A DNA stretch of 64,000 nucleotides from a virus (IMGVR_UViG_3300044846_004348:1-64000), one strand, 5' to 3'. Numbered from the stretch's first letter, positions 2 through 49,124 are shown. A program made the numbers and translations. The notes: generated from the sequence alone by a model not told the origin.

Positions 2-3000
2 ACTACTGAATCAGAAGATTTATTTGAACCAATTGCAACTTGGTCTGGTACAGGTCCAATGTTGGATACTTCTGGAATTCTTGGAGAACCTAGGACTCCT
101 ATTGATGAGCCTAATGCTCGTCTTCCTGGAAGACTACCTGCTTTAACTGCTCAGAGTGTAAATACACTTTTAAACGATTACCCTTCTTGGGTCGCTGGTC
201 AAAGATTAGAAGCAGAAGCTGCACCAACTCTTACTAGAGATGGTTTTACTCCGAAAAGTTCTGACACATTTGAAAAGTGGAATCCTTTAGTTGCCCCTAA
301 TGCTTATAACAATCCTTGGTTAAGAACTTGGTTAGATGCTGGTGCGCAAAATAGATTTTGGTACAACCCAATAGTTCCAGAAGGAACTATTGAGGCTAAA
401 AAATCTGCTCAGGAAGTTGGTCCAGAGCCAAAAATAAACTCAACTACGACTGGTAAATCTTCATCTTCTGGTGGTGGTGTTACATACACTCCAAGAAGTT
501 TTGGTGACCCAAAGCAATATGTACAAAAAGCTAAGCAAAGAGTTTATGCTCCACAATTTGCTACTAGTATTACTGCTGCTGCAGATGTAAATGCTCTCAC
601 ACCAGAAACTTCTGATGTTCCTCCTATTTATATGGCAATCGTTGCTAGTGATGACCCTCAAGCAGTTATGGATTTAGTTTCATTAGTACCTGCTAATAAA
701 GAATCAAGCACTCCAACAACTTTTACAAGACAAAATGGTGAGTGGGTTAAAGAAGAGCAAGTTTTAAGAGATTTAAACAGTCCAACACCTCCACCTGTAG
801 TTGTGTTAGATAATGAAACACTTGCAGATGTGGTTCAACAAGTTGACGCAAATGCTCAGACTGCTTCTGCGTGGATGGAAAACTTTTTTGAAGACAGAAT
901 GCTTCAAATTGTTTGGGGTCCAAAGAATGAAATTCTTTCTTTAGTTGCTGCTGGTGGTTTGGATAGAAATCGTGGTAACGCTGAAGAACTTCGCCGTTAC
1001 TGGACAGTTGGTAGAGGTGGCGCAAAAATTCGTTGGAATACTCCAGGAGACTGGACTCGTTGCAACAGATATTTGTCTAAATATTTAGGTCCTCGTGCTA
1101 AGGGTTATTGCTCTCTTCGTCATAAAGAAATGACTGGTGTATGGCCTGGAAGTAAATACAATGTCGGGAAGAAAAAATCTTTAGTATCTTCAGTATTTTC
1201 TGAAGAGGATTTTGAGAATTCAGTTATTGAGAAGGCTAAACTTCGTGCTCAAATTGCTTCTATTAAAGCAAGAGTAATTGTTGCATCTGTAGATGAAAAC
1301 CAAGAGGGTTCTAGTTTCACTATTCCTTTGGTTATCCCAGAGGGAGTTGATTCTGGCGATGGAAGATACTTTGAAAAAGGCGCTATTGAAATGCGCGAAC
1401 TTCCACTACCTCTTTTGTGGCAAATAAAAACTGCAGAGGGTCACTCTGGCTCAGTTGTAGTTGGAAAAATTACTAATATGGATAGAACTGATGACGGTAT
1501 TGGTAATGCTAAAGGTGTTTTTGATACTGGTGAGTATGGAAAAGAAGCTGAGCGACTAGTCCGAGGAGGATTTATTCGCGGAGTTTCAGCAGATATGGAT
1601 AAGTTTGAAGCCAACGAAGAAGAATCAGAAGCTTCAGAAGAATCAGATAACAAGAAGGTTAGCGCTGGTAGAATGAAAATAACGAAAGCCCGCGTAATGG
1701 CGGTTACTATCGTTCCAAAACCAGCATTTCAAGAATGCAGAATTATTCTTGATGAAATGGTTTCCTATAAGGAGGAAGACGTGGTTCCAGACGGCGTATA
1801 CGTCGAAGGTATAGATGAGTTGGAAGCTTCAGCTTTAGTTGCTTGCGGTGTAGTTGCTGGTGCAATTCCAGTTAATCCCCCAATGAACTGGTTTGACAAT
1901 CCAAAACTTAAAAAACCAACAGGTTTAACTGTTACAGACGAAGGTCAAGTTTTCGGTCACATTGCTGCTTGGCATGTAGATCATATTGGTATGTCTTTTG
2001 GTACTAGACCACCAAGAAGTAAAAGTAATTATTCATACTTTCATACAGGATTAGTTAAGACAGATTCGGGAGAAGATGTTCCAGTTGGTCAATTGACTTT
2101 AGCTGGTGGACATGCTCCATTAGAAGCATCTGCTCACGAGGCAGTTCGTCACTACGATGACACGGCATCTGCTGTAGCAGACGTTCATGCTGGTGAAGAT
2201 TCTTACGGTATTTGGGTTGCTGGAGCACTTCGTCCAGGAACTAGTCCAGAGCAAGTTCGCGCACTTCGTGCATCTGCACCTTCTGGTGATTGGCGTCCAA
2301 TTAAAGGTTCTCTTGAACTTGTTGCAGTTTGTCAAGTAAATGTTCCAGGATTCCCAATTGCTCGTGCTCGTGTTGCATCAGGTCAGGTAATGGCTTTGGT
2401 TGCAGCAGGTGCAAGTACCCTTGCAAAATTAAAAAATGATCCTTTAAAAGAATTAAATACAAGAATTCAAAAATTAGAACAAGCAGAGAAAGCCCCACTA
2501 GTTGCTGCCGCTCAAGAAGTTGCAGACAGATTTAAAACTATGGAAGCTTCAATTAAAGCTGAAGAACTTTCTGCTCGTTTTGCTGAAATTAAAAAAGATT
2601 CAGATCCAGACTGGACTTACATGGAGCAGACTTTGGATGATAATCCAGAGGCAGAACTAGCAGTAGTTTCTAGAAGAATTAGAGAGCGTCTAGCAAAAGA
2701 AGGTAAGGCTCTCAAAGATGGTTCTTACCCTATTAGAAATGTTGCAGATCTTAAGAATGCAATTCAAGCCTATGGAAGAGCAAAAGAAGGCAAGCGTGCA
2801 TTGGTTAAAAAGCACATTATGCGTCGTGCTCGTGGTTTAGAAAGAGCAGACTTAATTCCAGATAAGTGGAAAGAAGCAGCTCTTTTAAACTACTTAGGCG
2901 AATCTGAAGAACTTTTTGAAAATTCTGAAGCAGTTTTTCAAAAGTCCCCAATTGAAGATGCTATTGATATTGAGGGTTTAACAGATGAAGAGATTGATCA

Positions 3001-9145: not shown

Positions 9146-9171
9146 AACAAAAACGATAAAAGGAGAAAAAG

Positions 9172-10140: not shown

Positions 10141-10491
10141 ATGACAACACGATTTAAAGATTTTGGCGGTGCAGATTCTCAGCCAAAGGAAGCAATAAAA
10201 TTTAAACTACATGAAGAAGAGTTTTTATGTAAATCAGCAATTCAGGGTAAAACTCTTCTTAATTTAGTTGCTAAAACAGAGAATAATGAGCCATCTGAAC
10301 TTGCTAAAGTAATTGACGAGTTTTTTAGTCAAGTACTAGAGAAAGAAAGTTTGACTAGATTCGACAATCTTTTGAAACACGATAAAAAAATTGTTTCACT
10401 AGAAACTCTTGGTGAAATTACCTCATGGCTTATGGAGCAGTACTCAGATCGCCCTTTAACGGAGCCAGAGCCTTCCTCGAATGGGCAGTAG
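10141..10491 (+). CDS. Tail assembly chaperone (gpG-like)
   Basis: Upstream of the tape measure gene; slippery heptamer near the 3' end. Confidence 0.8.
   Translation: MTTRFKDFGGADSQPKEAIKFKLHEEEFLCKSAIQGKTLLNLVAKTENNEPSELAKVIDEFFSQVLEKESLTRFDNLLKHDKKIVSLETLGEITSWLMEQYSDRPLTEPEPSSNGQ
10452..10458 (+). other. -1 programmed ribosomal frameshift site C CCT TTA
   Basis: X XXY YYZ heptamer in the correct phase; the -1 frame is the open ORF running to 10874. Confidence 0.75.
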
Positions 10492-14100: not shown

Positions 14101-16466
14101 TGACATTACTTAATCAAGGTAAAGAATTTGAATTAGTAAACAAAAGTTTAACTCCTGTTGAAGAACCTATTAAAACTGGTCTTAAACTCCCTGGAGATAT
14201 AGTTTTAGGTAGTTTTGTTTTTAACACTGTCGATGAGTATGACGTTATTTGGGTTGTGACTGATATTGGTGGTTGGTGGAATCCACCAGAAGCAGAGATG
14301 CCAGACATAACTAGAGGTTACGGTGATGGCTCTTACGATTTTCAAGGAAGGTATGTAGCAAGAGAGTTAACTTTAGAAGGTGTATTTTTAACCAAAGACC
14401 CTTCACTAGTTGAAGCTGCTAGGGATCGACTTATCGAGGCAACTAATCTTGTTTACAAAGGTGCTTGGTTAATTACTGGTACTGATCCAAAAAGAGCTTC
14501 TTTTGTTCGTCTTTCTGGTCAAGTAGAAATTGAAACAACTAATGCGAGAGGTAGAACTGAGTTTTCTATTGGTCTTCGTGCTGCTGATCCTATTAAATAT
14601 GAGTGGAATGATTCCGAACCAGATGGTTATACGGTTATAGAGATACCTGCTAAAAACTTTATTAATGGAGATTCTGGCGTACAGACTATTACAAATATAG
14701 GTAATTATGATGTGCCTGTTTATTTGGAAGTAGTCGGTCCAGTTACATCTCCAGCAACTATTTTTAATAGAACTAGAGAAGAACTTGTATTAATGGTTTC
14801 TGGTATTAGAGGAAGACTTGGTTCTGTAATTGATAATAAAGAGCTTACTTTAGTTGAGTCTAGTTTAAAAGATGTGGCCACTCTTACTACACGTACAGCT
14901 CATAATTTTCAAGTAGGAGATGAAATTTTAGTTGAGGGAGTTGATAATATATTTGATGGACTATATATAATATCTTCTGTCCCTAGTGCAACAACATTTA
15001 CATATGAAATTGAAAATATCTCTAGTACATTACCAATTGTTCAAAAAAGTTTATTTAACAATATTGCCACTATCGAAACATCTGAAAATCATTCTTTTGA
15101 AGTAAACGATTCTATTTTTATATCTGGAGTGGATTCTGTATTTAATGGTACTAGCAGGATAACTGCAAAAACACTAAACACATTTTCTTTTGCAAAAACT
15201 AGAAATACTTCTACCTCTATAACTGGTGCAAGTATTATCTCAAATCAAGCAAATATTATTACTTTAGACCCCCACGAATTTATTCTCGGTGAAACTGTAA
15301 CTATTTCTGGTCTAGGGGGTAACTATAACGGCTCTTACATTATAACTTCTATTCCATCTTCTACAACATTTACTTATGCCGTAACTAGAACTAATGCTAG
15401 AAGTATTTTGAATAGGGTTTTAACTTCAAATGTTGCAACAATAACTTTAGACAATAATCATAATTTTCTTAGTGGAGAAAGTGTGCTTATTTCTGGAATA
15501 AATGATGCCTTTGATGGTGTTTATCAAATATCTTCTATTCCAACAACTACTACTTTTACATACAACCGTGAGAGATCTACTTCAAAAACAGTTACGGTTA
15601 AATCTAGAAATTCAAATACATCCATAATAACAACTGGTAGCGCCCACGGTTTATCTGCTACCGAGCAAGTTACTATCTCGGATGTAGAAGGCTTTAATGG
15701 AACATTTACTGTAACTTCAATTTTAAGTTCTAATAGTTTTAGTTTTGCCCAAACTGGCTCTAATCTAAACCCGACTGCAGTTTCTAATGGAAAACTAGTT
15801 GTAAATAAAAGACTAGTTTCTAAAAGAAAAAGACAAGGAAATGTTGCAACTATTACTACAGCAACCTCTCACGGGTTATTTGTAGGTGAAACTGTTAATA
15901 TTGAAGGAGTAGAAGCTAGTTATAACGGTGCAGGTAAAACTGTTACTGCTATACCTACAAGTAATTCTTTTACCTATTCTTCTACTGGTTCAGATGAAGC
16001 AGAACTTAACTCTGGAGGGTTAGTATCACTACTAGGAAACTACGCGGTATTACCAAGTAGCGCCTCGGTTGTGGGATTTGCCACAGTTTCTGGAAGTCTG
16101 CCTTTTACTTCAGTCCCTGGAACTGCAGTAGTTAATAATTATGTAGGCACCCCTATCTCTGGTGGAGTGACTCCACTAGTTACTGGCGGTAGGGCAACTA
16201 AAAAGAATGAAGTTCCTTTTACCCCTGGAGTTTCTATCTCTACAACAGCTACTGCAACTTATGGTCCAGATTTGTTAGAAATAGATACTCTTAACAGAGA
16301 TGTATTTTTAAACGGAGAAGTTGAAGGGGCTAGGGCAAAAATAGATATTCTTGCTGATTTTATAAAACTATCCCCTGGTGAAAATATTATTGAGTTTGAA
16401 GATTCTGGTAATCCAAATAGCGACGCGCTGTTAAAAATTTACTATAGATCTGGATGGTTAGGTTAG
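14100..16466 (+). CDS. Distal tail protein (Dit-like) with six inserted FCCH-like repeats
   Basis: Follows the tape measure gene; Dit-type ends (GGWWNPPE, RELTLEG, LRAADPIKY, TNIGN / LSPGENII..YRSGW); six TTxxxH-G/N repeats. Confidence 0.8.
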   Translation: MTLLNQGKEFELVNKSLTPVEEPIKTGLKLPGDIVLGSFVFNTVDEYDVIWVVTDIGGWWNPPEAEMPDITRGYGDGSYDFQGRYVARELTLEGVFLTKDPSLVEAARDRLIEATNLVYKGAWLITGTDPKRASFVRLSGQVEIETTNARGRTEFSIGLRAADPIKYEWNDSEPDGYTVIEIPAKNFINGDSGVQTITNIGNYDVPVYLEVVGPVTSPATIFNRTREELVLMVSGIRGRLGSVIDNKELTLVESSLKDVATLTTRTAHNFQVGDEILVEGVDNIFDGLYIISSVPSATTFTYEIENISSTLPIVQKSLFNNIATIETSENHSFEVNDSIFISGVDSVFNGTSRITAKTLNTFSFAKTRNTSTSITGASIISNQANIITLDPHEFILGETVTISGLGGNYNGSYIITSIPSSTTFTYAVTRTNARSILNRVLTSNVATITLDNNHNFLSGESVLISGINDAFDGVYQISSIPTTTTFTYNRERSTSKTVTVKSRNSNTSIITTGSAHGLSATEQVTISDVEGFNGTFTVTSILSSNSFSFAQTGSNLNPTAVSNGKLVVNKRLVSKRKRQGNVATITTATSHGLFVGETVNIEGVEASYNGAGKTVTAIPTSNSFTYSSTGSDEAELNSGGLVSLLGNYAVLPSSASVVGFATVSGSLPFTSVPGTAVVNNYVGTPISGGVTPLVTGGRATKKNEVPFTPGVSISTTATATYGPDLLEIDTLNRDVFLNGEVEGARAKIDILADFIKLSPGENIIEFEDSGNPNSDALLKIYYRSGWLG

Positions 16467-16514
16467 TATTTACATGTATAACACGACGACACGACGAAAT
16501 ATAAAGGTGCTGTA

Positions 16515-18539
16515 ATGGCTATAGAAGAAAGCATTGAATATAGATTCTTTCTTACGGATCTTTTAAGTAATGAAATTATCTCTGAAGTACCTTTTAAAGA
16601 TGTAAGTTTTAGTAGACAAATTCGTCGTGCTGGCGAGTTTTCAGGAAAAATTTCATTTATACCTCAGACTAGCGGTTTAAATCTTTACGAATCGACAATG
16701 CCAGGCAGAACTGGGCTATATGTAATGAGGAATGGAGTTTGTGTTTGGGGCGGAATTATATGGTCTAGATCTTATGATGTTTTGTCAAAAGAGTTAGATG
16801 TTTCTGCTGCAGAATTTATTAGTTATTTCTATCACAGGCATGTTTGGCAAACTTTAGTTTATGGTTCTAAATTTATTGGTATAGCTTCATACTCAATCAC
16901 TTCTGGTGTTGCAACTGTTGTGACAGAAGAACCTCACGGATTTGAGACTGGTGATAAAGTTGCAATTACTTTTACTAGTCCTTTAGTAGACGGTGTTAGG
17001 ACTATATCTTCAGTAAATTCGGCTAATCAATTCACTTTTAATGTGGCTTCTGCAAACGTACTATCTACGTCAATAAATAGTGGTGCAGTTAGAGGCTTAG
17101 TAGATACTTTTGATTTTGTTAGAGACATACTAAATTTAACTGCTACAGATCTTTCAGGTATAAACTTTGCAAATGAAGAGATAGAGCCTTCTCAAACTTT
17201 TGAAGTCGCTATTATCTCAAAACAAAGATTTAATAATTTAGTTACTTTAGTTACCTCTTCTGCACATAATTTAGTTATTGGTCAAGAAGTGTTAGTTTAT
17301 GAAGTTGACACTGCATTAAATGGTTCTCATGTCGTTACTAGTACCCCAGACGATACTACTTTTACATACGATTTACCTGGACCAAACATTACTAAAAGCA
17401 CTCTTCCTGGGTTAAAAACAATAAACATATCTACAAAAACTCTTACTGCTTCTCCTAGTGCAACTACTATAGATAGTCCAGCAACAGCCACAATTGTCCT
17501 CGCTGAGCCTCATGGAGCTGGGACAGGTCAAAGAGTTTTACTTCAAGGTGTTGATTCATTTTTTGTAGATAGACTCGATAAAAGATATGACGGATTTTTT
17601 GAGATTATAAATGTTCCTAATTCTACAACTTTTGAATACACCACTACAGGTATTTTAAGTGAGACTACCGCCTCAGTTATAGGTGGTACTGCAACTTTTG
17701 GTAGCAAAATAGTTTATGGTTCTTATGGAAGTTTTTCTTATAATGCAGACATCGATATAAGAGTATCTAATGAAACTAGCGGTCTGTTTCAGGAACAAAA
17801 AATTTATAGAGGTTATGAGTTAAAAACTATTGGTGAAATATTAGAAGAGTACTCAGAAAATATAAACGGTTTTGAGTATAGAATTGATTGTGACTACGAT
17901 TACGATACAGCTTCATTTACTAGAACATTTGTGTTGTTAGATTTATCTGGTCCTCCTGAATTAGAGGAGGGTGGTTTGCCAGATATATCAAGGTTTGGTG
18001 CAAATCAATTTGTTTTTGAATATCCAGGAAACATCTCAAAATTTACTGTTGAAGAGTCAGCAGAAAACGCTGCTACCAGAATGTTTACTATGGGTAAAAT
18101 TGACGATATATCTGGTGACTCAAGTCAACCTTACTCTGCTGACTCGGCTACTCAGCTACTAAACAATTTAAATGGTAGAAGTTGGCCACTACTTGATCAA
18201 GCAGAATCTGTAGATGGGGTATCAAGTGAGCAAGAACTCTATTCTTACGCTAAAGACTATCTTTATGAGTCACTACCACCAATTAGTGAGTTTTCATTGT
18301 CTGTAAATGGGTCTTTATCTCCTATTGTTGGTAGCTATAAACCAGGTGATTTTTGTTCAATAATAGTTAATGACGAGTTTGTTCGTGAAAGGTTGGCTAG
18401 TGATTCTGAGCCAAGAAGCGACATCATCATTAGAAAAATTGTTAGTTATTCTGTAACTGTGCCTGATAGTCCTCACTACCCAGAGGATGTTTCATTAGAA
18501 CTTATTACTGATTGGAAGGTAGAAGATAGTGGCAACTAG
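16515..18539 (+). CDS. Minor tail / baseplate hub protein (Tal-like) with three FCCH-like repeats
   Basis: YVMRNGVCVWGGIIW, GFEYRID, FEYPGNI, GSYKPGD motifs; follows Dit. Confidence 0.75.
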   Translation: MAIEESIEYRFFLTDLLSNEIISEVPFKDVSFSRQIRRAGEFSGKISFIPQTSGLNLYESTMPGRTGLYVMRNGVCVWGGIIWSRSYDVLSKELDVSAAEFISYFYHRHVWQTLVYGSKFIGIASYSITSGVATVVTEEPHGFETGDKVAITFTSPLVDGVRTISSVNSANQFTFNVASANVLSTSINSGAVRGLVDTFDFVRDILNLTATDLSGINFANEEIEPSQTFEVAIISKQRFNNLVTLVTSSAHNLVIGQEVLVYEVDTALNGSHVVTSTPDDTTFTYDLPGPNITKSTLPGLKTINISTKTLTASPSATTIDSPATATIVLAEPHGAGTGQRVLLQGVDSFFVDRLDKRYDGFFEIINVPNSTTFEYTTTGILSETTASVIGGTATFGSKIVYGSYGSFSYNADIDIRVSNETSGLFQEQKIYRGYELKTIGEILEEYSENINGFEYRIDCDYDYDTASFTRTFVLLDLSGPPELEEGGLPDISRFGANQFVFEYPGNISKFTVEESAENAATRMFTMGKIDDISGDSSQPYSADSATQLLNNLNGRSWPLLDQAESVDGVSSEQELYSYAKDYLYESLPPISEFSLSVNGSLSPIVGSYKPGDFCSIIVNDEFVRERLASDSEPRSDIIIRKIVSYSVTVPDSPHYPEDVSLELITDWKVEDSGN

Positions 18540-37989: not shown

Positions 37990-40900
37990 CTACGCCTGAG
38001 CTTCAGCCCACGACAATTTCGCTGATGTCAGTGTTTCTGAGCCAGTTAAACGTGCTACAGCAATTGTTATAATATCTGGACCATCTGGGAATACGCTGTT
38101 TCCACCTAAAATAGAGTTAGATAGTTCAAACAAATCACCGATGTCTACAGTAGTTCCTAATTCTTGACCATTTGCACCACTTGCACGGAAATTATAAACT
38201 TGAATACCACCAGAAATTGTGTCATTTGATGTGTGCTCAATTGTTTGAACTAGAGAAGGGGACTCTACTCCTACGAAATTTAAGTTATTTAGACGACCGT
38301 TGAGTAGTACTTTAACATCAATTAATTGATTAGTCTGTACACCAATTTCATTTAGACGAAGTTGCATTCTATTTATAATATCTCTATCACCTAATTGACC
38401 AGTTAATCCTTCGGAAACAGACGGACTTAAGCGAAGAGAAATTAGTGGCTGGTAGTTACCTCCAGAAGTGTTATTTAAACTTCCAGCAGGTGTAAATGAG
38501 TATGTTGATAAAGTATTACCTTGGTTGAAGAAGTTGACAACATTTTTTGAAACTAATGTTCCACCAGGAGGAGTTGCAGATCCTACATCTCTTCTATCAA
38601 CGAAAGCGTCGTAAGTAAATTGATTAGCAGCAGGTACAGTTGCAATTGTGTAGGATCCGTTAAATGAAGCAGCAAAAGCATCGGTGCTCATATTTACAAA
38701 TACACTATCCCCAACGTTGTATCCATGATTAGCACTCGTTGTTATTGTAACTCTGAAAGAGTTCTTTACTCTAGTAGTTACTGTAAATGTGGTTGCTTGT
38801 AAGTCGGCTAGTCTGTAATAAAGAATTATGTTATTAGTGTTTAGTGGTCTTATAAAATATGTTGCTTCGTTTTGAAGATTGTTAAAAGCATTTATTCCTG
38901 CAACTGTTTGTATAGCTGGGTTTTGGCTATTAGGTTGAAGGGAGCCAGAACCACTTATACCTTTAAATTGTAGTGGATCTCCTAAAGCAAAACCGTGTGA
39001 AGGTATGTTTATAATTTCGGTTTGAGTGTTAATTGCACTAGAACCAAAAGTTTTTGCGGTAGTTCCACCAATATTTAAAGAGGCACTAGATTTAGTGAAC
39101 AAATAGGCTCTATCATCATCAAATGTTCCATCCATCATTACCGAAGTTCCCCAGTGGAATAGGTATGGAATGTAGGTAGGGTTTTCAAATGTTACTACTT
39201 CGTATCGAGCAGGTAAGTTACCTGAGCGGAAGTATGATTCAAATTTTTGGTTGTTGTGAACAAACTCATGGACATAGCGAACTTGACCGTCTACTGTCTT
39301 AAATCCATAACGAATCTTACCTGCACCGTACCAAGAGTAATCCATATAAATCATTTGAATTTTAGATAGATCTAGGTTGTATCCAGTAATACCAGTGCCA
39401 TCGCAAGGATCTATTGACCATTGTGATTGAGGAACTCTTGTGTCTTCGGTAAGTGTTGCAATGATACCTGTTTTAGCGGAAACAAAAGAGTGTACAGTTC
39501 CCGATCCAACATCAGATAAGGTTACAAATTGCTCGGCAGTTGGACTTGCTTTTAACTTTAATGTGTTATTAGTTAGTACACTAATGTAGTAAGTTCTTCC
39601 ATTAATTAACCCGCCTATAGGGGTTCCATCAATTGAATTGTAAATTACTGGAAGGTTTTCAGTGTATCCATGATTTAATATAGTAATAACATTAGTTGAG
39701 GTATTTACTGCTGTACTTGGATTAAATTCTGTTTCATTACCAGAAGAACCTTTGTATTCAGGTTTAATAGAAATACGACTATCACTAGTTATTTCAGAAA
39801 CTTTATATGATTGACCTCTAAGAACAATGCTGTCTCCTACAGTTAGTTGAGCTTGGAACGCTGTATTTGTTCCAAAAATAAACTCTGATCCTTGTAAAGC
39901 AGCTATAGTTCCAGATATTTGTTGTGTTGAAGATCTACGCACACAGTAAAGTTCTTGTCCATCGAACTCAAAGAACATTCCGTTTTGATCATCGAACATT
40001 CCAGCGCGAAGGGCGCCATTTGTCCAAGCAGTAACGTGCATTCTTGGATATCCGTATGATCTGTTTTCTGTAATATTTACATTAGATATGTAGGTAAAGT
40101 TAAATGCGTCAATTACAGTAACTTGGAAAGTTCCGTTATAAATTTGACTTAACACATTTTGGGAATCAAAGGCATCATCAATTTTTACAAATAGACCGTT
40201 AATTAGTCCGTGAGGTCTTCTGGTCCTAACTGTGATAACGGAAGATGACCCTACTCTTCTCATATCTTCAACATCTATTGATGGTTTAAAGTTGATACCT
40301 GCAGATGTTTGAATACCTTTACCCGATTGATAACGGAAATATTTACGGGTTTGACGAATTATCTTTCCGTACCAGGTGCCGTATCCTGTAGACATTTCTA
40401 CTCCACCATCAAATGGACGATGTAGTGAGTATCCTTGAGGACGAACATATATGAATGTTGGGTACGAGTAACTTACATTTGTGTAGGCAGTGCTGTAAGG
40501 TCTGTCTACTGTAATTTGATCGTCTCCACCTATAGCAGCGATAGTTCTAATAATTGGTGTAGATGGTGTTATTTTAGATAGTTTTAAAGCAAAGCCAGTT
40601 CCCGCTGAAGAAATATCTACAGCGTTTGTATCGGCTGTTGCATCGGCTAGCGTGTTATAAAGTTTTACACTATTACTACTTAGTGGCGTTAGTGTTCCAG
40701 TTACTCCTGCTCCAGCTATATTACCCCCTGTAACTGTTGCAATAGCTTGTATTCTATTTGCAGCTGGCACATGAACTACAGTAAATGTACCGTTAAACAC
40801 TTCTGGATTTACACCAGTTATAGATGAGATAGTAAATCTATTACCAGCACGTAAGTTATGGTTTATTGATGTTGTGTAGTCTAGTATATTATCTGTTCTA

Positions 40901-43900
40901 TTTCTATTGTTTACTGTAAAAGTAGTTGAGTTGGGTATAGATCTTACAAAGTAGTAGTATCCGTCAATTAAAGGACTTGGTGATACCCCAGCAACACCTG
41001 ATGTTTGAGCAACACCAGTTGTCTGCACTTCATTAGTAAGAGTCGATCCTAATGAATTTGCACCTGTATATGTAAACTGAAAAGTATCTGGGGTTCCAGT
41101 AATTGTGTATGTTCCATTAAACTCAACAGCAGTTGTAGAACTTAGTCCACTAATAGTTACAATGTTACCAATTGTGTAACCATGGGCTTCTCTAGTTCTA
41201 ATTGTTCTACTAGTACCTGAACCAGAAATTTGGAAAATTTCTCTTCTAGGTCCACCAGTGCCTGGACTGAAAACAACTGAATCTTCTGTACTAAATTGGT
41301 GAGAGGCTAGAGTTATAACTTCTGTAGAAGTGTTTACATCTGAGGCAGCAAAAAATGCAGGTTGTTCTGTGTCTGGAGGGAATATTCTTAGTCTATCTCC
41401 CACTTTTAGAATTTTACTAAAGTTTGTTCCATCTCCATCTACTAGTACGGAGTTGACTGTAGTGTTTAGGGTTCCCGTTCCTGTAATATTTCCATTAATT
41501 TGAGAACTAGTTAAAGTGTGGGATAGACCTGCTCCAAAACTTGTAATGGAGATAGGAACACCTGATTGTGAGTTTGCTACAGTACTAGCCAGTCTTAACC
41601 AGTCTTTAGAAACTGCTATTACGTAATAATCATCACCGTCTGTTAGCCCGCCAATTGGTGTTTCTCCGCCGTCAGAGTATGTAACTTTTGTTCCAGTTAA
41701 AAATCCGTGTGAAGGTATTTTTATATAATTTTCTGATACGTCTACATTGAATCTTGGACTAAATGTTTTAACAATCTCTGGTACAGATCCTGAAGCAGTT
41801 ACTTCAAATTCGGTTGCACTAGTTACATCGCTAATTGAGTATGTACCATCTGGTGTTCTAATTAATGATTTTAATTTATGTCTACCGACTGGTGCTGGGG
41901 ATGCAATTAAATCTATTGCAGTTCCATTTGATGCATTAATACTACTTGTTGCTAGTTTTATTGTGTTTCCGTCTATTACAATTACATAATATGGAGTTGC
42001 ACTTACCAAACCATTTATATCAGTTTGACCTACCGTGTCATATTCTACTAGCTCACCTGTAGAAAAACCATGATTTGGGATTGTTAAAGTGTTTTCAACA
42101 AAATCTACAACGAATGTAGTTACCGAATGAGACCCTATACCTACTCCAATAATATTTTCTACTAAAGTAAGATTTTTGTCGTTGTACAGTCTAAGTGTGT
42201 TAGCATCTATTCTCTGTATAAAGTAAATTTTTTGATTTTGTAGTCCAAAAATATTTGTATTAGTGTCTATTTCTCCAACAACACCAGTAGCACCTACTTC
42301 TCTAAGTAGTGTGTTTCCAGTTGTTGCTGTTTGTATAGGTATAGTATTTAACGTAATTGTTGCACTAGCGTTGGCGGCTGGTACTTGATCTACAGTTAAA
42401 GCTCCAGAAACTGCTGCAGTAGTTACAGTTCCTGATGTTTGTGTAAAAAATTGAATTCTGTTAGCAGCAGGTATTGCCGTAATAGTGTGAGTTCCGTTGA
42501 ATATATTTGCATCTGCACCTGACATGCTGGATATAGTTACAGTATCGCCAACTTGTAAATTATGGGTTGTATTTAAGGTCACATCTGCTACGTTTACTGT
42601 TCTTAATCTATTAGTTACAGTAAATGTTGTAACGTTGGCTGCTTGAGGTCTGGTTACAGTGAATATTGTGCTTGAAGGAACGTTGTTAATTACAAATGTT
42701 CCATTAAATATGTTTGGATTATTTGCAGATATGCCAGAAATTGTTACTGTTGTTCCCACTTCAAGATGGTGAGGTAGGGTGGTTGTATATCTAGCCACCG
42801 TGTTTGAAATAAGTTCTCTATTGGATACAACTCTTGTGTATGTTGGAATGGTGTATCTTAGTTGATTTACACCAGCCATTGTTCCACCAACTACTTCATT
42901 TGATATGGTCCCACTAGTTGGTGTTGTAAAAGTTACTCTAGTGCTTGAAGGAATACTACTAATAACCCATTCGCCATTAAAGGTTTGAGGAACTGAACCT
43001 CCAATATTATTAATTCTTATTCTTTCACCCACTTCAAAACCGTGAGCTGCGCTTACAGTTACGTCAGCAACGTTTGCGCTTCTACTTCTTGCAGTAATAG
43101 TGAAAGCAGGTCTAGTCATGAGAGAAGCTCTTACAGTTGTTCCAGTAGTAGCACCGTTGGCAACAGTAATAGAAGTTGTACCTATATATGTAAATTGATT
43201 TGCAGAAGGGACACCATTTACTGTGAACTCTCCTATAAAACTGGAAGCATTTACTCCAGTCATATTTATAATTCTTATTCTGTCGCCAATAGCAAAGTAA
43301 TGAGGATTATCTGTGGTTATAGTTCTTGTAGTAGCTTCACTCTGTCTAGCAGTAATGTTTACTTGGTAATTCCAAAAATTACCATCGTTACCGCTGTTGT
43401 TTTCTAGGTATACGTAGTTATTAGTTTCTAAATTGTGTGGCGCTGCGGTGTTAACAACTAAGTTAGTGTTACTAAACAGTCTTCTAGTTGATAGTGTAGA
43501 TTTTTTTTCAGGACTATCAAACGTTATAACTGATGCAGAAGGAAGTGAAGTTACTCTATACTCTCCATTGAAAACATCTTGATTTGTATTAGTTATACCA
43601 GTTACAACAAATCTATCATTAACTTGAAGATCGTGGTTAGCATCAAAGTTTAAAGTTCCAACAGTTCTATTTGCTAGATTTCTGTTATTAATTCTTACAC
43701 CAATTTTTGAAGTTTTACCTATTGCTGTAGTTGTTGATAAAGTGTAGCTTGAAGGTGGCATCTGATATCTAAACTGAGTGGAGCTGCTTATAGTGTCTAC
43801 AATTGCATCTCTATAAACAAAACCAGCATTAGTTATGCCACCAGATCCAACATTTGTATTGCTAAAAGTAATATTTGGATCTAAGTTAGAACTTCCTACT

Positions 43901-46581
43901 GATTGAATTCTGTAGTCTTGATTTGCTGTATATGTAAATGTATTAGTTCCAGGTACAGAGGTTATAAAGTAGGTTCCATTAAAATATTCACCTATGTCTC
44001 CTTGAATACCTACAACACTTCCTGAAATATTTTTAACAACTACTGGAAAACCATTTGGTAGGTAGTGTGGCTCTGTTGTTACAATAGTTCTAGTAGTTCC
44101 TGAAGAAGATATACTTCTAATATTTGTTGTAAAAAGATGAGGTAGATAGTCTAAATCTGTTCTAGCTATAATATATGCTGCAACATCGGTATTAGTCTCT
44201 AAAGTTAAACTAAAACTTTCTTCAGCTGTATAAGTTATTTGGTTAGATGATGGTACACCAGTTACAACATATCTTCCATTAAATCTTGTGTTATTTGTGC
44301 CTGTGTTTCCTACAACTTGAAAATAGTTTCCAGTAGCTAAGTTATGGCTACTAGCAAGAGTGAGTGTTCTTGTTTGACCAGAACTTCCTCTTTGTGTTAT
44401 TAATATTTGAGGAGTGGCTATACCTGGTATTGAGAAGTTATCAAATGTTACTCTACTTCCGTTTTGTAAATTGTGAGGCTCTGTTGTTGTAATAAATCTA
44501 GAATTTCCGCTACTAGAAACGTTAGCTATAGTTAAGTCTCTACTCTTTTGATATCTTACTGTTTGTCCAGAAACATAACCGTGACTTGGTATGTAGATAC
44601 TGTCTTCTGAAATGTTTACAATATTCAAAATAAGACTGTGGTTTATTCCAGTGCCAGCAGCAGATAAGTCAATTACTGGACCCTGTAGCGATTGACTTAA
44701 TGTAAATCTATTTTCGTCTACCACTTCTTTTATATAATATGTAGAATTATTTTGTAAAGGTGTAATAGCTGTTCCAGTACCGACTGAATATCTTACTGGC
44801 TGATCCAGTAAAAATCCGTGATTACTTATAGTAATAATATTTAGAGCTGTATTAACAGTAACGTCTCTAAAACCCTCTACTGCATTGATACTAGATGGAC
44901 CAGTAATATTTAAAGTAGTAAAATTAGGATCTGGAGTGCTACTTAATCTATAACTAAAATCATCTACTAAATTTATATAGTAAACCGTGTTTTGTGCTAA
45001 ACCTATAGGAGCTGTACCGTTAGTGAAATAGTTTACAGCTTCCCCGTTAAAGAACCCGTGTGCAGTTTTTTGACTAATTATTTCTGTGTCTAAATCTATA
45101 GTTATTGGTACTAATGCGTGGAAAGAACTTCCAGCAGGGGCAATAGGAATTGCGTTTTCTTCATTGTTTGCATCTTCTGCAGTTGGGTGAAGTGTAAATC
45201 CAAACAAAGATCTTTCTACAAGAGTTACAGAAACTTCTCCTTCAACATCTCCTGTATTGTAAAGATTTAAGTTTTCAATTGGTTGACCTAGTAAAGTTGC
45301 AGATCCATCATATAAACCAGTAGATGTTGCAACATTTGTTGCTGTAGCAAATATGAATGAGCCACCACCACCACCAGTTAAACTTCCAATGCGATCGGTA
45401 GTTGCTCCACCACTGTAACCACCTGCTCCACCATTACCGCCCCAAGATTCGCCGTCTGAACCTGCTCCGCCGCCGAAACCACCTATTGCTGATGAGCCAC
45501 CAGCAGAAAAACCACCTACAAGACCATTGTTAAAGCCGCCGCCGCCGCCGCCTCGCTCAGAGTTTCCGCCTGCAGAGAAGAAACCTCCTCCACCACCACC
45601 AGCAGAACGTCCTGCTGCACCTTGACCGCCTTGACCACCAGTGTAACCTTGTTGCGATGTACCACCGATAGTTGTTAATACAGCATTAAAACCAAATTGT
45701 GTGTTAGATGAGGATGCTCCACCGCCAGCAACAAACAAAGGAATATTTCCAGCTTTTCTTACAACAAATGTTCCACCAGAAGATGCTGGCCATGTAATAT
45801 TATTAGGAGGTAGTTCTCCTCTTTGACCTATTGCAAAAGTAATAATTTCGCCTTTAATTAAGCGAACACGACCTCTTACAATTGCACCACCGCCACCAAG
45901 TGCTCTACCTTGACGACCAGGAGCACCTTTTACTGTAAATTCGTACAAACCATCTTCTGGAACTGTCCAGTCTTGGTATCCCTGAAAACTACCTAAATTT
46001 AAATATGTATTTTCCCAAGTTTCTGCAGCATAAGCTGATCTCATTTGTGCAAGATTTGGTCCTTGCCCTCCAGTAACCCCAGCGGATGTAAATGTGTGAT
46101 TATCAAATAGATATAAGGCAGAGCCACCAAGACCTGTTAAAAGATTTTTTACATAATATGTATTACCTGAAGTAAGACCTGTAATTGGGGTTGAGTCGGT
46201 AAGGTATTTTACTGCTTGAACATCATCGTATTTTACGTTAGTTATGTTTATAGAATTATCGTAAACAGATGGGAAGTTGAAAGTTACGGTTCCTGCTGAA
46301 TATTCAGTTAAATTTATATTAGTAGTAGAGGCTGCTGTAGTTGTAAAACCTATAGAAAAATTATCAGCAGTGTTTAGAAAATATACTTCACCACTGTCTA
46401 AACCATCTATAGTTCCTGTAGTTTCTCTTACTACCCAAGCGCTATCATTTACTAAATTTGTAGCTTTTGTGGTATTGATGTCTCTACCAGGAAAGTAAAT
46501 ATAATCTTCATCTAAGTTAACATTTACTTTTTGAAGAGTGTGTGTACCTGACCCACCTACAGCGGTAATATTAATAGTCAA
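37990..46581 (-). CDS. Giant virion structural protein (2863 aa) with nested FCCH-like repeats and a glycine-rich domain
   Basis: TTG start with SD GAGG; more than 20 HG/HN barrel repeats of two types; poly-Gly domain; core motifs HRPFDGG, RQTRKYFRYQSGKG, MDYSWYGAG. Confidence 0.8.
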   Translation of the reverse strand: MTINITAVGGSGTHTLQKVNVNLDEDYIYFPGRDINTTKATNLVNDSAWVVRETTGTIDGLDSGEVYFLNTADNFSIGFTTTAASTTNINLTEYSAGTVTFNFPSVYDNSINITNVKYDDVQAVKYLTDSTPITGLTSGNTYYVKNLLTGLGGSALYLFDNHTFTSAGVTGGQGPNLAQMRSAYAAETWENTYLNLGSFQGYQDWTVPEDGLYEFTVKGAPGRQGRALGGGGAIVRGRVRLIKGEIITFAIGQRGELPPNNITWPASSGGTFVVRKAGNIPLFVAGGGASSSNTQFGFNAVLTTIGGTSQQGYTGGQGGQGAAGRSAGGGGGGFFSAGGNSERGGGGGGFNNGLVGGFSAGGSSAIGGFGGGAGSDGESWGGNGGAGGYSGGATTDRIGSLTGGGGGSFIFATATNVATSTGLYDGSATLLGQPIENLNLYNTGDVEGEVSVTLVERSLFGFTLHPTAEDANNEENAIPIAPAGSSFHALVPITIDLDTEIISQKTAHGFFNGEAVNYFTNGTAPIGLAQNTVYYINLVDDFSYRLSSTPDPNFTTLNITGPSSINAVEGFRDVTVNTALNIITISNHGFLLDQPVRYSVGTGTAITPLQNNSTYYIKEVVDENRFTLSQSLQGPVIDLSAAGTGINHSLILNIVNISEDSIYIPSHGYVSGQTVRYQKSRDLTIANVSSSGNSRFITTTEPHNLQNGSRVTFDNFSIPGIATPQILITQRGSSGQTRTLTLASSHNLATGNYFQVVGNTGTNNTRFNGRYVVTGVPSSNQITYTAEESFSLTLETNTDVAAYIIARTDLDYLPHLFTTNIRSISSSGTTRTIVTTEPHYLPNGFPVVVKNISGSVVGIQGDIGEYFNGTYFITSVPGTNTFTYTANQDYRIQSVGSSNLDPNITFSNTNVGSGGITNAGFVYRDAIVDTISSSTQFRYQMPPSSYTLSTTTAIGKTSKIGVRINNRNLANRTVGTLNFDANHDLQVNDRFVVTGITNTNQDVFNGEYRVTSLPSASVITFDSPEKKSTLSTRRLFSNTNLVVNTAAPHNLETNNYVYLENNSGNDGNFWNYQVNITARQSEATTRTITTDNPHYFAIGDRIRIINMTGVNASSFIGEFTVNGVPSANQFTYIGTTSITVANGATTGTTVRASLMTRPAFTITARSRSANVADVTVSAAHGFEVGERIRINNIGGSVPQTFNGEWVISSIPSSTRVTFTTPTSGTISNEVVGGTMAGVNQLRYTIPTYTRVVSNRELISNTVARYTTTLPHHLEVGTTVTISGISANNPNIFNGTFVINNVPSSTIFTVTRPQAANVTTFTVTNRLRTVNVADVTLNTTHNLQVGDTVTISSMSGADANIFNGTHTITAIPAANRIQFFTQTSGTVTTAAVSGALTVDQVPAANASATITLNTIPIQTATTGNTLLREVGATGVVGEIDTNTNIFGLQNQKIYFIQRIDANTLRLYNDKNLTLVENIIGVGIGSHSVTTFVVDFVENTLTIPNHGFSTGELVEYDTVGQTDINGLVSATPYYVIVIDGNTIKLATSSINASNGTAIDLIASPAPVGRHKLKSLIRTPDGTYSISDVTSATEFEVTASGSVPEIVKTFSPRFNVDVSENYIKIPSHGFLTGTKVTYSDGGETPIGGLTDGDDYYVIAVSKDWLRLASTVANSQSGVPISITSFGAGLSHTLTSSQINGNITGTGTLNTTVNSVLVDGDGTNFSKILKVGDRLRIFPPDTEQPAFFAASDVNTSTEVITLASHQFSTEDSVVFSPGTGGPRREIFQISGSGTSRTIRTREAHGYTIGNIVTISGLSSTTAVEFNGTYTITGTPDTFQFTYTGANSLGSTLTNEVQTTGVAQTSGVAGVSPSPLIDGYYYFVRSIPNSTTFTVNNRNRTDNILDYTTSINHNLRAGNRFTISSITGVNPEVFNGTFTVVHVPAANRIQAIATVTGGNIAGAGVTGTLTPLSSNSVKLYNTLADATADTNAVDISSAGTGFALKLSKITPSTPIIRTIAAIGGDDQITVDRPYSTAYTNVSYSYPTFIYVRPQGYSLHRPFDGGVEMSTGYGTWYGKIIRQTRKYFRYQSGKGIQTSAGINFKPSIDVEDMRRVGSSSVITVRTRRPHGLINGLFVKIDDAFDSQNVLSQIYNGTFQVTVIDAFNFTYISNVNITENRSYGYPRMHVTAWTNGALRAGMFDDQNGMFFEFDGQELYCVRRSSTQQISGTIAALQGSEFIFGTNTAFQAQLTVGDSIVLRGQSYKVSEITSDSRISIKPEYKGSSGNETEFNPSTAVNTSTNVITILNHGYTENLPVIYNSIDGTPIGGLINGRTYYISVLTNNTLKLKASPTAEQFVTLSDVGSGTVHSFVSAKTGIIATLTEDTRVPQSQWSIDPCDGTGITGYNLDLSKIQMIYMDYSWYGAGKIRYGFKTVDGQVRYVHEFVHNNQKFESYFRSGNLPARYEVVTFENPTYIPYLFHWGTSVMMDGTFDDDRAYLFTKSSASLNIGGTTAKTFGSSAINTQTEIINIPSHGFALGDPLQFKGISGSGSLQPNSQNPAIQTVAGINAFNNLQNEATYFIRPLNTNNIILYYRLADLQATTFTVTTRVKNSFRVTITTSANHGYNVGDSVFVNMSTDAFAASFNGSYTIATVPAANQFTYDAFVDRRDVGSATPPGGTLVSKNVVNFFNQGNTLSTYSFTPAGSLNNTSGGNYQPLISLRLSPSVSEGLTGQLGDRDIINRMQLRLNEIGVQTNQLIDVKVLLNGRLNNLNFVGVESPSLVQTIEHTSNDTISGGIQVYNFRASGANGQELGTTVDIGDLFELSNSILGGNSVFPDGPDIITIAVARLTGSETLTSAKLSWAEAQA

Positions 46582-46630
46582 CTAAATTACCTCTTCCAAA
46601 TTATAAATATTATTAATACTTTTGTTTTTA

Positions 46631-46639
46631 ATTTTACCA
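46631..46639 (-). promoter_or_regulatory. Extended -10 promoter for the giant gene
   Basis: TGGTAAAAT on the minus strand in the 62-nt gap upstream of the TTG start. Confidence 0.45.
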
Positions 46640-46643
46640 GAAA

Positions 46644-49124
46644 TCATCGGACGTAAACCGCCAAGTTTAGGAAAGTTCTGTTTGCTGCACCGTTGGAACT
46701 ATTTCCAAAGTTCCACCAGTGTCCGTGTGCTCTCCAGTGCGAGTTAGATGTGTATGTAAATCCAATACCACCGCCCCATCTATCAGACGTTGTTCCTGTA
46801 CCACCCATACCTATCATCGAGGCACCGTGACCAGTTACAAGGTTTGATGTTGCTGTGGTGTATCCGCCTGTCATGTATTGGTTTATATTTCCATAATTAT
46901 TTGCATAGTCAGATAAAACTTTAAATCCAAATCTTGCGCCAGTTTGTAGTAATTGTTGACGAACGCTAGTGTGGGTGCCTAAACGACGTACCATAGACCA
47001 CTCGTTTGGATCGTTTACATAAATAGATGGGAATAGCCAAGTATTTCCATATGTAGATTGATTTGTTCCACCAGTAACAGATCTCATATTTGGAATGGTG
47101 ACATTGTGTCTCCAACCAATTCTATTTGCAGTGTTTGTTATTTGAACTATCATCACATCGTTGAAAGGTAGTTTGTAGAATAGAGGACTAAATGCATCAA
47201 CATCGTTAAGATCTTGACTATTTGCAGAAGCAAATAAACTTGTAAATTGATTATCTGCATTCCAAGCCCAACCATCCCATATAGGACCAAATGTGTGGGA
47301 TGCTCCCGATTGAGGTGCATTACCACTAGGTAGCGAGTTAGTTAATAATGTGTTGCTAGATAACTTCATAATTTGAGTCCAACCACCGCCCTCAACTCCA
47401 AAGAAGCAGTGAGTTAAATGTGCTGTAGCAGAACCTGCTGGTTTAATCCAATAAGCACCAGTTGTAGATGCTGGTGCGGCTAAAAGAATAGCGGCAGCGC
47501 TTGTAGCGGCTCTTGCTTCAGTTGTTCCGTCTAATACAAAACCTTTATCTCTCGTTAAAGAAATATGTGTGCCGTCATATACTCTTTTAACAAAATAGTA
47601 ATTAGCTGGAGCTTCGACAGTTGTTATTGGTGCCCCTACTGGATATGAGTACTTGACCATATCTGCTTCTTCAAAATTATGACCAGGTACTGCAAGTATT
47701 TCTTTATCTATTGAAACAGATATTGCTTTTAATGTTTGAGTACCAGTTCCACCAGAAATAGCACTTAGAGCGGATCCTCCAGGTTCTGCAGATAAGTTGA
47801 CAATATTTGTCTGAGCATTAATGCCAGCAACAAAGTATGTAGTGTTATTAGTTAATCCAGTAGCAGCGGAACCAGAAGTTGAGTAAAGAAGCATCTGTCC
47901 ATTTGCCCAGTTTGTGTTTGAAGCTAAAGTAAAGTTAGTAATACCGCTTCCACTTATTGAACTAATAGTGTATGTTGATCCTTCTGAATTATCTCCATCA
48001 AACTCGTAACTTGTGCCTTGTATTAAAGTAGTAGAGATTTGGTTTGTAGTGTCTAAATTTCCTCCAGCAAAAGTTGCCACCAAGTCTGCTTTTTGAAATG
48101 TTCCAGTTATATTAGATGTAATATCTATAACTGTTCCATTAGGAATTTGACTGACTGTAAATGTAGAAGAACTAGTTCCTAAACTGTTGGCAGTTTTAAT
48201 AAACACGACACCGCGAGGGTTAGTTGCAAAAAAACCTTCAGCTGCACTAACACTATATTGAAGAGCAGACCCTACAATAAGATTTGAAAAATTTTCTGAA
48301 GTATGTGAGACAGTTATTGTGTCTGATTCAGTATTTACACCTGAAACTGTACTAGCAACGGATATAGGGCTACTTGATGCATTATTAGATAGACTTAATA
48401 AACTTTGTGAAGCTGTATTTGATCCATCAAAAATTCTAGCAGTTGCGTTATTTGAAGCATCAAAGGATTTTGATTCTGTGTTAGTTGAATCAAACTCTTG
48501 ACTAATAGTTGAGTTTAAGTTAATAAAATAGAAAGGAGTATTTGGTCCGAACCCATGAGGACTTTCTGTTTTTATAGTTAAAGTAGAAGTTGGCTCTGCG
48601 TCTGTAACGATACCTTCTGAGTCAGATATGCGAATTTGAGACCCTTGAAAAAATTCACCTGTAATAATAGATGTATACAAATCTTCAATACTTTTAGTTT
48701 GAAATTGATTCTCTCTCGCTAAATATGTAAAAGTTCTAGCATTAGGTATTGAGTTAATAATATAAGATCCATCAGCAGTTATTTCTTTAGTTCCACTAAC
48801 ACTTATAGGTATACCTGCAGCAAGACCGTGATCTAGGGCGGTAGTAATTGTAATTTCTCTTGAACCAACTATTGTAGTTATTGATTCTATGTTAGGGATA
48901 GTTGTATCACCAGATTTTGAAAAAAATGAAGGAATATTATTAATTAATTCTACTGTTTCCCATTTTGTTGGCTGTAAACCGTACTCAAAGTCTGTATCGA
49001 TTAAGTTTTCAGGTTGGGAAACCCTAAGTTTAGTTACTGGATCGATAAACTCTTTTGGAAAAGAAATTTCTCCGCCAGTAGTGCCGCCGCCGCCGCCGCT
49101 AGAGCCTCCTAGAAAACCTGGCAT
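46644..49124 (-). CDS. Virion structural protein (826 aa) with FCCH-like repeats and a C-terminal fibrinogen/lectin-like domain
   Basis: KLRVSQPENLIDTDFEYG N-terminal motif; barrel repeats; GAYWIKP..THC..EGGGWTQIM fibrinogen-like start; SD GAGGT. Confidence 0.75.
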   Translation of the reverse strand: MPGFLGGSSGGGGGTTGGEISFPKEFIDPVTKLRVSQPENLIDTDFEYGLQPTKWETVELINNIPSFFSKSGDTTIPNIESITTIVGSREITITTALDHGLAAGIPISVSGTKEITADGSYIINSIPNARTFTYLARENQFQTKSIEDLYTSIITGEFFQGSQIRISDSEGIVTDAEPTSTLTIKTESPHGFGPNTPFYFINLNSTISQEFDSTNTESKSFDASNNATARIFDGSNTASQSLLSLSNNASSSPISVASTVSGVNTESDTITVSHTSENFSNLIVGSALQYSVSAAEGFFATNPRGVVFIKTANSLGTSSSTFTVSQIPNGTVIDITSNITGTFQKADLVATFAGGNLDTTNQISTTLIQGTSYEFDGDNSEGSTYTISSISGSGITNFTLASNTNWANGQMLLYSTSGSAATGLTNNTTYFVAGINAQTNIVNLSAEPGGSALSAISGGTGTQTLKAISVSIDKEILAVPGHNFEEADMVKYSYPVGAPITTVEAPANYYFVKRVYDGTHISLTRDKGFVLDGTTEARAATSAAAILLAAPASTTGAYWIKPAGSATAHLTHCFFGVEGGGWTQIMKLSSNTLLTNSLPSGNAPQSGASHTFGPIWDGWAWNADNQFTSLFASANSQDLNDVDAFSPLFYKLPFNDVMIVQITNTANRIGWRHNVTIPNMRSVTGGTNQSTYGNTWLFPSIYVNDPNEWSMVRRLGTHTSVRQQLLQTGARFGFKVLSDYANNYGNINQYMTGGYTTATSNLVTGHGASMIGMGGTGTTSDRWGGGIGFTYTSNSHWRAHGHWWNFGNSSNGAANRTFLNLAVYVR

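Follow-up and report, generated by a model that had tools for sequence, protein, structure and literature searches.

The 64,000-nucleotide stretch of viral DNA IMGVR_UViG_3300044846_004348:1-64000 (hereafter the window, meaning the whole stretch analysed) carries two adjacent genes on its minus strand, gene 1 (protein P0001) and gene 2 (protein P0002), that together correspond to a single virion protein of other phages. An original prediction made from the window alone proposed that the two are one gene split in the middle of a repeat, with halves that complement each other in trans. Homologues, repeat profiles and structure models strongly support the split and point to reassembly of the two chains. 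The closest named relative of this virus is Actinomycetia phage DSL-LC01, a 129-kb lake-water metagenome assembly with a predicted actinobacterial host.

Two genes and the domains they share

The features of the pair are as follows, gene 1 first.

46644..49124, minus strand: gene 1 (P0001, 826 aa), ATG start, from the list of open reading frames (ORFs) and translation
48879..49052, minus strand: invariant N-terminal segment (N-segment), gene 1 residues 25-82, FIDPVTKLRVS..LIDTDFEYGLQPTKWE, PHROG 5838 positions 100-158
48702..48866, minus strand: complete type-A barrel A1, gene 1 residues 87-141, A-domain profile positions 2-54 of 56, E 1.6e-18
48504..48590, minus strand: first half of barrel A2, gene 1 residues 179-207, STLTIKTESPHGFGPNTPFYFINLNS, A-domain profile positions 3-29 only
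47541..47723, minus strand: last type-B domain of gene 1, residues 468-528, ending ..YYFVKRVYDGTHISLTRDKG after the fourth strand
46647..47540, minus strand: head, gene 1 residues 529-826, intelectin / fibrinogen-related lectin-like, free C-terminus ..AVYVR
46582..46643, minus strand: spacer, 62 nt, with TGGTAAAAT at 46639-46631, an AGAGG Shine-Dalgarno sequence at 46594-46590 and an in-frame TAG at 46584-46582
37990..46581, minus strand: gene 2 (P0002, 2863 aa), TTG start, from the ORF list and translation, remainder of the family protein
46525..46581, minus strand: orphan last two B strands, gene 2 residues 1-19, M/L-T-INITAVGGSGTHTLQKV, completing the B-domain profile to position 83
45172..46086, minus strand: glycine-rich domain in the insertion, gene 2 residues ~166-470, PHROG 22713 matching 197-425
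41779..41856, minus strand: second half of A2, gene 2 residues 1576-1601, TPDGTYSISDVTSATEFEVTASGSVP, A-domain profile positions 31-54 only
37993..40491, minus strand: conserved C-terminal core, gene 2 residues ~2031-2863, HRPFDGG .. SWAEAQA, by blastp to fused homologues

Gene 1 comprises the N-terminal module of the family, a portion of a giant insertion, a truncated B domain and a lectin-like head. Its relatives form more than 100 full-length clusters at 47-99% identity, and orthologues of gene 2 form 69 clusters. The two reading frames differ (49124-46581 = 2543, remainder 2). Gene 1 ends in TGA and TGGTAAAAT comes after it in the spacer; the AGAGG lies 8 nt upstream of the gene 2 TTG, and the TAG stands in frame immediately before that start. 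The downstream gene thus has its own Shine-Dalgarno sequence, TTG and TGGTAAAAT, as first described, and its predicted N-terminal peptide is (M)TINITAVGGSGTHTLQK. Our scan called no promoter or terminator in the spacer, with counts not above those of shuffled sequence. The private promoter proposed for gene 2 is not conserved, because the gaps of relatives span only 3-60 nt.

The window comes from a metagenome-derived, 92.6-kb virus record that is ~71% complete, a source in which errors of sequencing or assembly, or a mutation that recently inactivated one gene, might pass for a split gene. That account has a negligible chance of being right and can be regarded as refuted. DSL-LC01 has the same layout, as do 55 IMG/VR loci, two complete genomes with terminal repeats among them, and more than 100 protein clusters with identities as low as 47%. 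DNA contigs from three lake-water runs (2020, 2023 and 2024) bridge the junction without indels.

The gene break falls inside a domain. For each repeat type we built a profile hidden Markov model (HMM) from intact copies, with 84 positions for the B domain and 56 for the A domain. P0001 468-545 matches the B-domain HMM at positions 2-64 only: the last B repeat stops after LTRDKG (residue 528, nucleotide ~47541), and the protein's own tail past that residue does not supply the missing part. Among split-form relatives, matches to a P0001 query all end at positions 520-535. The original prediction that this repeat breaks off near 47540 and gives way to a fibrinogen-like domain is thereby borne out, the latter through the Foldseek match to 4wmq described below.

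The missing ending lies at the start of the other gene. P0002 begins, from its TTG, with T-INITAVGGSGTHTL, and joining P0001 466-528 to P0002 residues 2-22 in silico extends the HMM match to positions 2-83, with a rise from 29.4 to 39.0 bits. With shuffled tails the mean was 31.1 bits and the maximum 38.1; random 21-mers of P0002 reached at most 34.7. Stronger evidence than this join is the gene 2 start that all 69 clusters share. In gene 2 proteins of 1858-2907 aa, the beginning M-x-[IL]-[ND]-I-T..G..G-T-H recurs in 38/38 distinct loci and 69/69 clusters, with M1, G9, G12 and H14 of the orphan strands invariant in 36 loci. An isolated B domain at P0002 2279-2372, absent from the homologue in Synechococcus phage S-BM3, has the same final ..L..G.G..H.F element, so this element belongs to the domain upstream of it. 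The claim that the 2863-residue protein opens with the missing repeat ending therefore stands.

A second domain is divided between the two proteins. The A-domain HMM matches P0001 179-224 at positions 3-29 and P0002 1537-1602 at positions 31-54, an unclosed first half and an unopened second half as originally noted. Joined, the A2 halves match positions 3-54 with 35.5 bits, against 14.9 and 18.4 bits for each alone and at most 18.5 for shuffles. The complete A1 barrel has a weak likeness to Pfam End_beta_barrel and E1_FCCH.

The unsplit family and the origin of the break

Both proteins match different parts of one family, PHROG 5838 ('virion structural protein', 1106 positions): positions 100-158 fall on P0001 25-82, and positions 320-1106 on P0002. 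The characteristic N-segment (..DPV.K.RVS.P..LIDTDFEYG.Q.TKWE) is present in P0001 and the core with HRP[FY]DGG and the SW.E.QA ending in P0002. What departs from the family is the one-polypeptide layout, replaced by two ORFs in the whole clade to which the window belongs. The strongest tie between the two genes had escaped the original prediction: the family's N-terminal module is on the small protein and the remaining core on the giant one.

The search it had proposed, for homologues with DTDFEYG and HRPFDGG in one ORF, was positive many times over. Synechococcus phage S-BM3 (WDS61269, 2087 aa, cluster T4-GC_863) and podovirus ctQRb9 (UOF81037, 1736 aa) each encode DTDFEYG and HRP[FY]DGG in a single ORF that is collinear with P0001 17-212 and then with P0002 ~1476-2863. 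By blastp, the N-terminal part shares 41-44% identity with these two proteins over ~196 residues, and P0002 2033-2863 is collinear with fused homologues. An exhaustive search with P0001 returned 76 full-length fused representatives of 1227-4358 aa, nearly all of which run from a MAKK.. start through DTDFEYG and HRP.DGG to ..SW.ESQA. In a separate group, the first ~530 residues match P0001 and nothing matches beyond. A short fused member served to collect 80 viral loci, and most of these also have both motifs in one ORF; in the remainder, one motif was missed by the exact pattern or the ORF is cut at a contig end. By homology, gene 1 and gene 2 are together one PHROG 5838 member, which is a single gene in about a hundred other phage lineages.

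The window pair shares with the PHROG 5838 / T4-GC_863 cyanophage proteins the N-segment with DTDFEYG, inserted type-A and type-B domains, the HRPFDGG core and the SW.E.QA end, and these relatives also lie in tail-fibre gene neighbourhoods. Unlike the single ORFs of S-BM3 and ctQRb9, the window has two ORFs cut inside nested domains, the first of which carries an added lectin head. Neither the window nor DSL-LC01 has the N-terminal domain of ~95 aa that the cyanophage proteins possess.

Family members differ in how far A2 has been opened. In minimal fused members (941-1091 aa) A2 is uninterrupted and lies ~25 residues before HRP.DGG. In larger members it is interrupted at one loop, the same loop that is used for the other nested insertions of P0002, and the core itself holds inserted B and A domains at P0002 2281-2372 and 2511-2705. 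In the window, the A2 interruption consists of P0001 206-826 plus P0002 1-1575. Since a B domain of this insertion contains the gene break, the fission divides that B domain, divides the A2 barrel that hosts the insertion, and parts the family's N-terminal module from its core.

Insertion of one domain into a loop of another is the rule in P0002. At P0002 691-947 (window ~43740-44511, minus strand), type-A halves at 691-721 and 920-947 enclose complete type-A domains at 734-792 and 827-892. The P0002 B domain at 653-699 is also cut short (HMM positions 2-37).

The phylogeny of the N-terminal module indicates how often the break arose. In a maximum-likelihood tree of 102 rows, with fragments left out, the 26 split representatives form one clade (SH-aLRT 95) that is sister (99) to P0158, a fused protein of 4358 aa, and nested among fused forms. 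One change of state explains this tree. P0158 is collinear with the window across the break, with P0001 355-528 corresponding to its residues 1321-1513 and P0002 3-147 to 1524-1666. This nearest fused relative has an intact B domain and a ~10-residue loop where the window has head, stop and restart, as expected of one gene split mid-repeat, and the fused form was found in two sources. Judged from the tree and these alignments, the split is of single, old origin.

The break has since stayed fixed to the residue. Whichever head gene 1 carries, gene 2 of relatives starts 3-60 nt past the gene 1 stop in a relative frame that varies across 38 loci; in DSL-LC01 the start codon at that residue is ATG. 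Three complete genomes of the clade each match the N-terminal part of the profile a single time, in gene 1, and match its C-terminal part only in gene 2.

Reading frames that resume exactly where the repeat is cut could also be explained by one polypeptide, produced by frameshifting, bypassing, read-through, or RNA or protein splicing, with the head kept or removed. We regard this as very improbable. Across relatives the spacer ranges over 3-60 nt and the frame offset over 0, 1 and 2, with in-frame stops before the start. Gene 2 always opens at one and the same residue with an ATG, GTG or TTG of its own, which the AGAGG Shine-Dalgarno sequence precedes in the window. The junction has no Rfam family at E <= 1, whether intron or recoding element; no intein-like sequence is present, the head being a lectin fold; and none of the contigs examined contains a head-skipping joint. 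The RNA data would be compatible with a rare joined transcript. Two metatranscriptome contigs from one run match 47140-47382 and 47727-48000, parts of the head and of the upstream repeats, at ~96-98% identity and so represent a relative; they account for little of the stretch and neither spans the junction, and finding them in an RNA library does not by itself prove transcription.

Probable reassembly of the two chains

The half-domains are better conserved than their immediate surroundings. Across 38 long orthologues, conservation is 0.75 for the orphan B strands and 0.73 for half-A2, next to 0.77-0.85 for the core. The complete neighbouring domains score lower, 0.54 next to the orphan B strands and 0.62-0.63 flanking half-A2. 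The first half of A2 in gene 1 has dense invariant columns from S180 to S205 (38 sequences), and its second half in gene 2 keeps [ST]PDG[TI]Y in 68/68 orthologue clusters. The orphan pieces are thus conserved like the core, a pattern that places them under strong constraint. In gene 1 itself, the N-segment is the best-conserved part, with a mean pairwise identity of 0.88 and a run of invariant columns.

Structure models suggest that the N-terminal module belongs with the core. In P0001 alone, the predicted local distance difference test (pLDDT) is below 50 at residues 1-77 and 142-254. In a fused 941-aa homologue, the homologous region has a pLDDT of 80-89 within a compact model (predicted template modelling score 0.75). 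The best VIA match of this minimal fused model is 3i4i (Z 16.6, root-mean-square deviation 3.0, 194/215 residues), followed by many GH16 enzymes, legume lectins and the TM4 gp23 receptor-binding domain. The VIA alignments span 111..757, so the ConA/GH16-like sandwich seems to draw on both the N-segment and the C-terminal parts. In the model the N-segment appears to supply the first strands of this sandwich. Other comparisons gave little: the core has no Pfam ConA/GH16 match at E <= 10; Foldseek of the fused model against the PDB returned only matches of TM <0.1 to podovirus nozzle and tail proteins, which we do not trust; the family profile against PDB sequences gave only a short match to the F2-pyocin side fibre; and the protein atlas gave only unnamed viral clusters. 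By these models, PHROG 5838, uncharacterised so far, would gain its first fold-level description, a ConA/GH16-like core with nested barrels.

The DTDFEYG motif (window 48996-48976, minus strand; P0001 residues 43-49) lies in a family strand, D-x-D-x-E-[FY]-x-G, that is invariant. We take it to resemble the GH16 catalytic motif E-x-D-x-E-F, which is a lead only; the VIA ranges suggest that DTDFEYG aligns to an N-terminal strand and not to the active-site strand. If it did belong to the active site, the cleft would be divided here, with its catalytic strand on one polypeptide and the remainder on the other.

The B domain at the break has the layout expected for donor-strand complementation. The acceptor, P0001 468-545, lacks its terminal strands, and the missing strands lie at a free terminus, P0002 2-19. 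Prediction of a complex between P0001 375-545 and P0002 1-108 gave a median ipSAE of 0.49 (runs 0.48, 0.49 and 0.58), which is weak support for a domain completed from both chains; the best of 3 controls scored 0.00. Of 80 solved complexes 58 attain the ipSAE mark, as do 2 of 110 mismatched pairs, and scores at 0.60 or under include 7 of those 80 solved complexes and both passing mismatches. The runs agree in at least 61% of contacts, with partner pLDDT of at least 66, and the score is not memory of a known complex, because no solved structure of the family exists.

Several of these results weigh against reassembly. The complex score sits in the weak band, and the in-silico B join exceeds its best shuffle narrowly (39.0 vs 38.1 bits), a modest margin on the window alone. 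The truncated B domain has a pLDDT of 54-86 in P0001 alone, so it might fold without donor strands. The pLDDT comparison between P0001 and the fused homologue rests on two different proteins and shallow alignments (38 and 28 rows). The DTDFEYG segment stays below a pLDDT of 50 even in the fused model, so its placement in the sandwich is uncertain, and it may bind another virion protein instead. The virion location of PHROG 5838 comes from annotation alone.

These points would suit a fission without re-joining, in which the products became independent virion proteins: gene 1 anchors by its N-segment to another structural protein and displays its lectin head, gene 2 works without the N-terminal module, and the half-domains are vestigial, folding in some other way or serving as linkers. 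A low-confidence DTDFEYG would fit contact with a third protein, and the fairly good model of the truncated B domain and the weak-band complex score also favour this account. We nonetheless consider this account unlikely. Both A2 halves and the orphan B strands are kept at core-like conservation in 38-69 clusters, whereas a vestige would be expected to drift or vanish. Within the clade, no genome offers gene 2 a further N-terminal module, although all fused family members seen contain this module, and the region after the N-segment is modelled confidently only in the fused context.

On balance, the two chains probably re-assemble, with the tie between N-terminal module and core more likely than the B-strand tie to hold them together. 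The beta-strand complementation of the original prediction accordingly stands as an inference, drawn from conservation of the orphan pieces, the contiguous A domain of minimal homologues, model confidence and the weak complex score.

The explanation that we favour, and think likely overall, is one ancient fission of a single virion-appendage gene followed by two-chain assembly. The ancestral gene is the PHROG 5838 gene of T4-like cyanophages and some podoviruses, laid out as invariant N-segment, A1, A2 and ConA/GH16-like core, with long arrays of extra domains inserted in one A2 loop in larger members. In a clade of ~130-kb lake-water phages with predicted actinobacterial hosts, the A2 insertion grew to ~2100 residues and was then cut within one of its B domains. 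Gene 1 retained the N-terminal module, the first half of A2 and four B strands, and ends in an exchangeable head with a free C-terminus. Gene 2 restarts with its own Shine-Dalgarno sequence and start codon exactly at the next strand, and retains the second half of A2 and the core. Gene structure, ancestry and single origin are thus established, along with conservation and the diversity of heads, while physical complementation, binding of glycans and a part in recombination are proposals. Both chains would form one unit, held mainly by the gene 1 N-terminal module completing the gene 2 core and the A2 barrel. A second, likely tie would be the N-terminal strands of gene 2 completing the gene 1 B domain, and the head would thereby be presented at the tip of a closed loop.

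A fuller version, which we put somewhat short of an even chance, is an evolutionarily stable, interlocked two-chain protein in which up to three folds (the ConA-like core, the small barrel and the repeat domain) are built from both products. The break would then be a plug-in site, and the half-domains flanking the head would serve as a docking device and may also act, as DNA, as homology arms for head exchange.

Known systems offer partial parallels. In chaperone-usher pilins, an incomplete beta domain is completed by the N-terminal extension of another chain. The first 19 residues of gene 2 would likewise provide the strands missing from the last B domain of gene 1. Pilins are short of a single strand of an immunoglobulin-like fold and depend on a chaperone, whereas gene fission here has parted two strands from a repeat domain of ~84 residues. 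The fission also divides a second barrel and probably the core, and binding is predicted weakly.

The split DnaE intein of cyanobacteria is a natural split protein that reassembles, and there too the gene fission lies inside a fold and the fragments are expected to associate. The window pair differs in having no splicing chemistry, in fragments that are adjacent and probably co-transcribed, and in a break that displays variable heads.

Adaptor-docked phage receptor-binding proteins, such as G7C gp63.1/gp66, the CBA120 tailspikes and T4 gp36/gp37, are also separate polypeptides with exchangeable heads that dock on a larger fibre, with a conserved N-terminal anchor and a variable C-terminal head. 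Their adaptor domains are self-contained, whereas the anchor here consists of half-domains, which unsplit relatives encode without interruption. That phage fibre genes undergo fission and exchange their tips is already known in kind; split-domain docking would be an unproven extension.

The exchangeable head and its surroundings

The head of gene 1 is modelled with confidence, with pLDDT mostly above 85 over residues 529-826 in the AlphaFold2 model. Foldseek places it with intelectin-1 (4wmq, E 2e-5, prob 1.00, TM on target 0.41); ficolins, FGL1 and fibrinogen come next. P0001 itself has no PF00147 (Fibrinogen_C) match at E <= 0.01; its relative P0118 scores 25.7 bits against a cutoff of 22, and several full-length gene 1 relatives have precomputed PF00147 matches. 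The head shares its fold and GGGW-type motifs with intelectins (X-type lectins) and fibrinogen-related domains. Identity to intelectins is ~13%, and the head here would be a phage fibre tip.

Heads differ widely among relatives. Proteins of 780-1534 aa keep residues 1-~528 and then carry other fibrinogen-like variants, He_PIG immunoglobulin-like plus Gly_rich_2 domains, or unassigned tails. The proposal that a head was inserted with a stop and restart fits this pattern, the different heads always lying between the same half-repeat flanks. Within gene 1, conservation is 0.72-0.88 over the N-terminal module but drops to 0.37 over the head. Receptor-binding proteins show this pattern, their anchor being conserved and their tip exchangeable; to judge from the modelled fold, the head probably binds a glycan of the host surface.

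Galactofuranose is among the microbial glycans that intelectins bind. DSL-LC01 encodes UDP-galactopyranose mutase (PMC10611076), and a galactofuranose-type ligand drawn from this analogy is only a lead. The DSL-LC01 paper does not discuss these two genes, and our literature searches returned no paper on the split, on PHROG 5838 structure or on intelectin-like phage tips.

Phage host range depends centrally on the modular exchange of receptor-binding tips, and the tip usually forms the end of a self-contained fibre or docks by means of a dedicated adaptor domain. Here a clade of abundant lake-water phages has kept a gene split that cuts through folded domains over 47-99% identity, with diverse heads at the cut. 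If the chains reassemble, this would be natural split-domain docking, for which our searches found no phage-fibre counterpart, and a clear case of domain-in-domain insertion and fission creating a new free terminus. It would also offer a ready scaffold for displaying foreign binding domains.

The glycine-rich domain near the start of gene 2 (P0002 ~166-470) has precomputed PF12810 matches on gene 2 orthologues. It explains the GenBank label 'ALK tyrosine kinase receptor' on the DSL-LC01 gene 2 orthologue, and Gly_rich_2 domains related to it serve as alternative gene 1 heads in relatives.

Collagen-like tail-fibre genes form a long block on the minus strand (window 33662-58000), with many PHROG tail-fibre and collagen-like minor-tail matches, and the split pair occupies its middle. 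Two genes of this block are followed by short genes of 205 aa and 307 aa that have no PHROG match.

Further family members occur as paralogues. A 210-kb viral contig (IMGVR_UViG_3300008111_000002) has two in tandem, at 511-5037 and 6194-10378, the first of them without an exact DTDFEYG motif. Outside the window, a 412-414-aa ORF (G000:C1:74326-74601, minus strand) matches only PHROG 5838 positions ~566-659, the CDGTG..YSWYGAG part of the core. This small paralogue of one core segment is also present in two complete relatives and is conserved in the clade. Looking through the genome record for another full family copy turned up none, only this ORF (414 aa, profile positions 567-659) and the type-A repeats at 14100-18539.

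Type-A barrels extend beyond the split pair. On the plus strand at 14100-18539, ORFs of 788 aa and 674 aa contain type-A barrel arrays (tblastn from P0002, E down to 2e-20), so the type-A barrel is a building block common to several virion genes of this phage.

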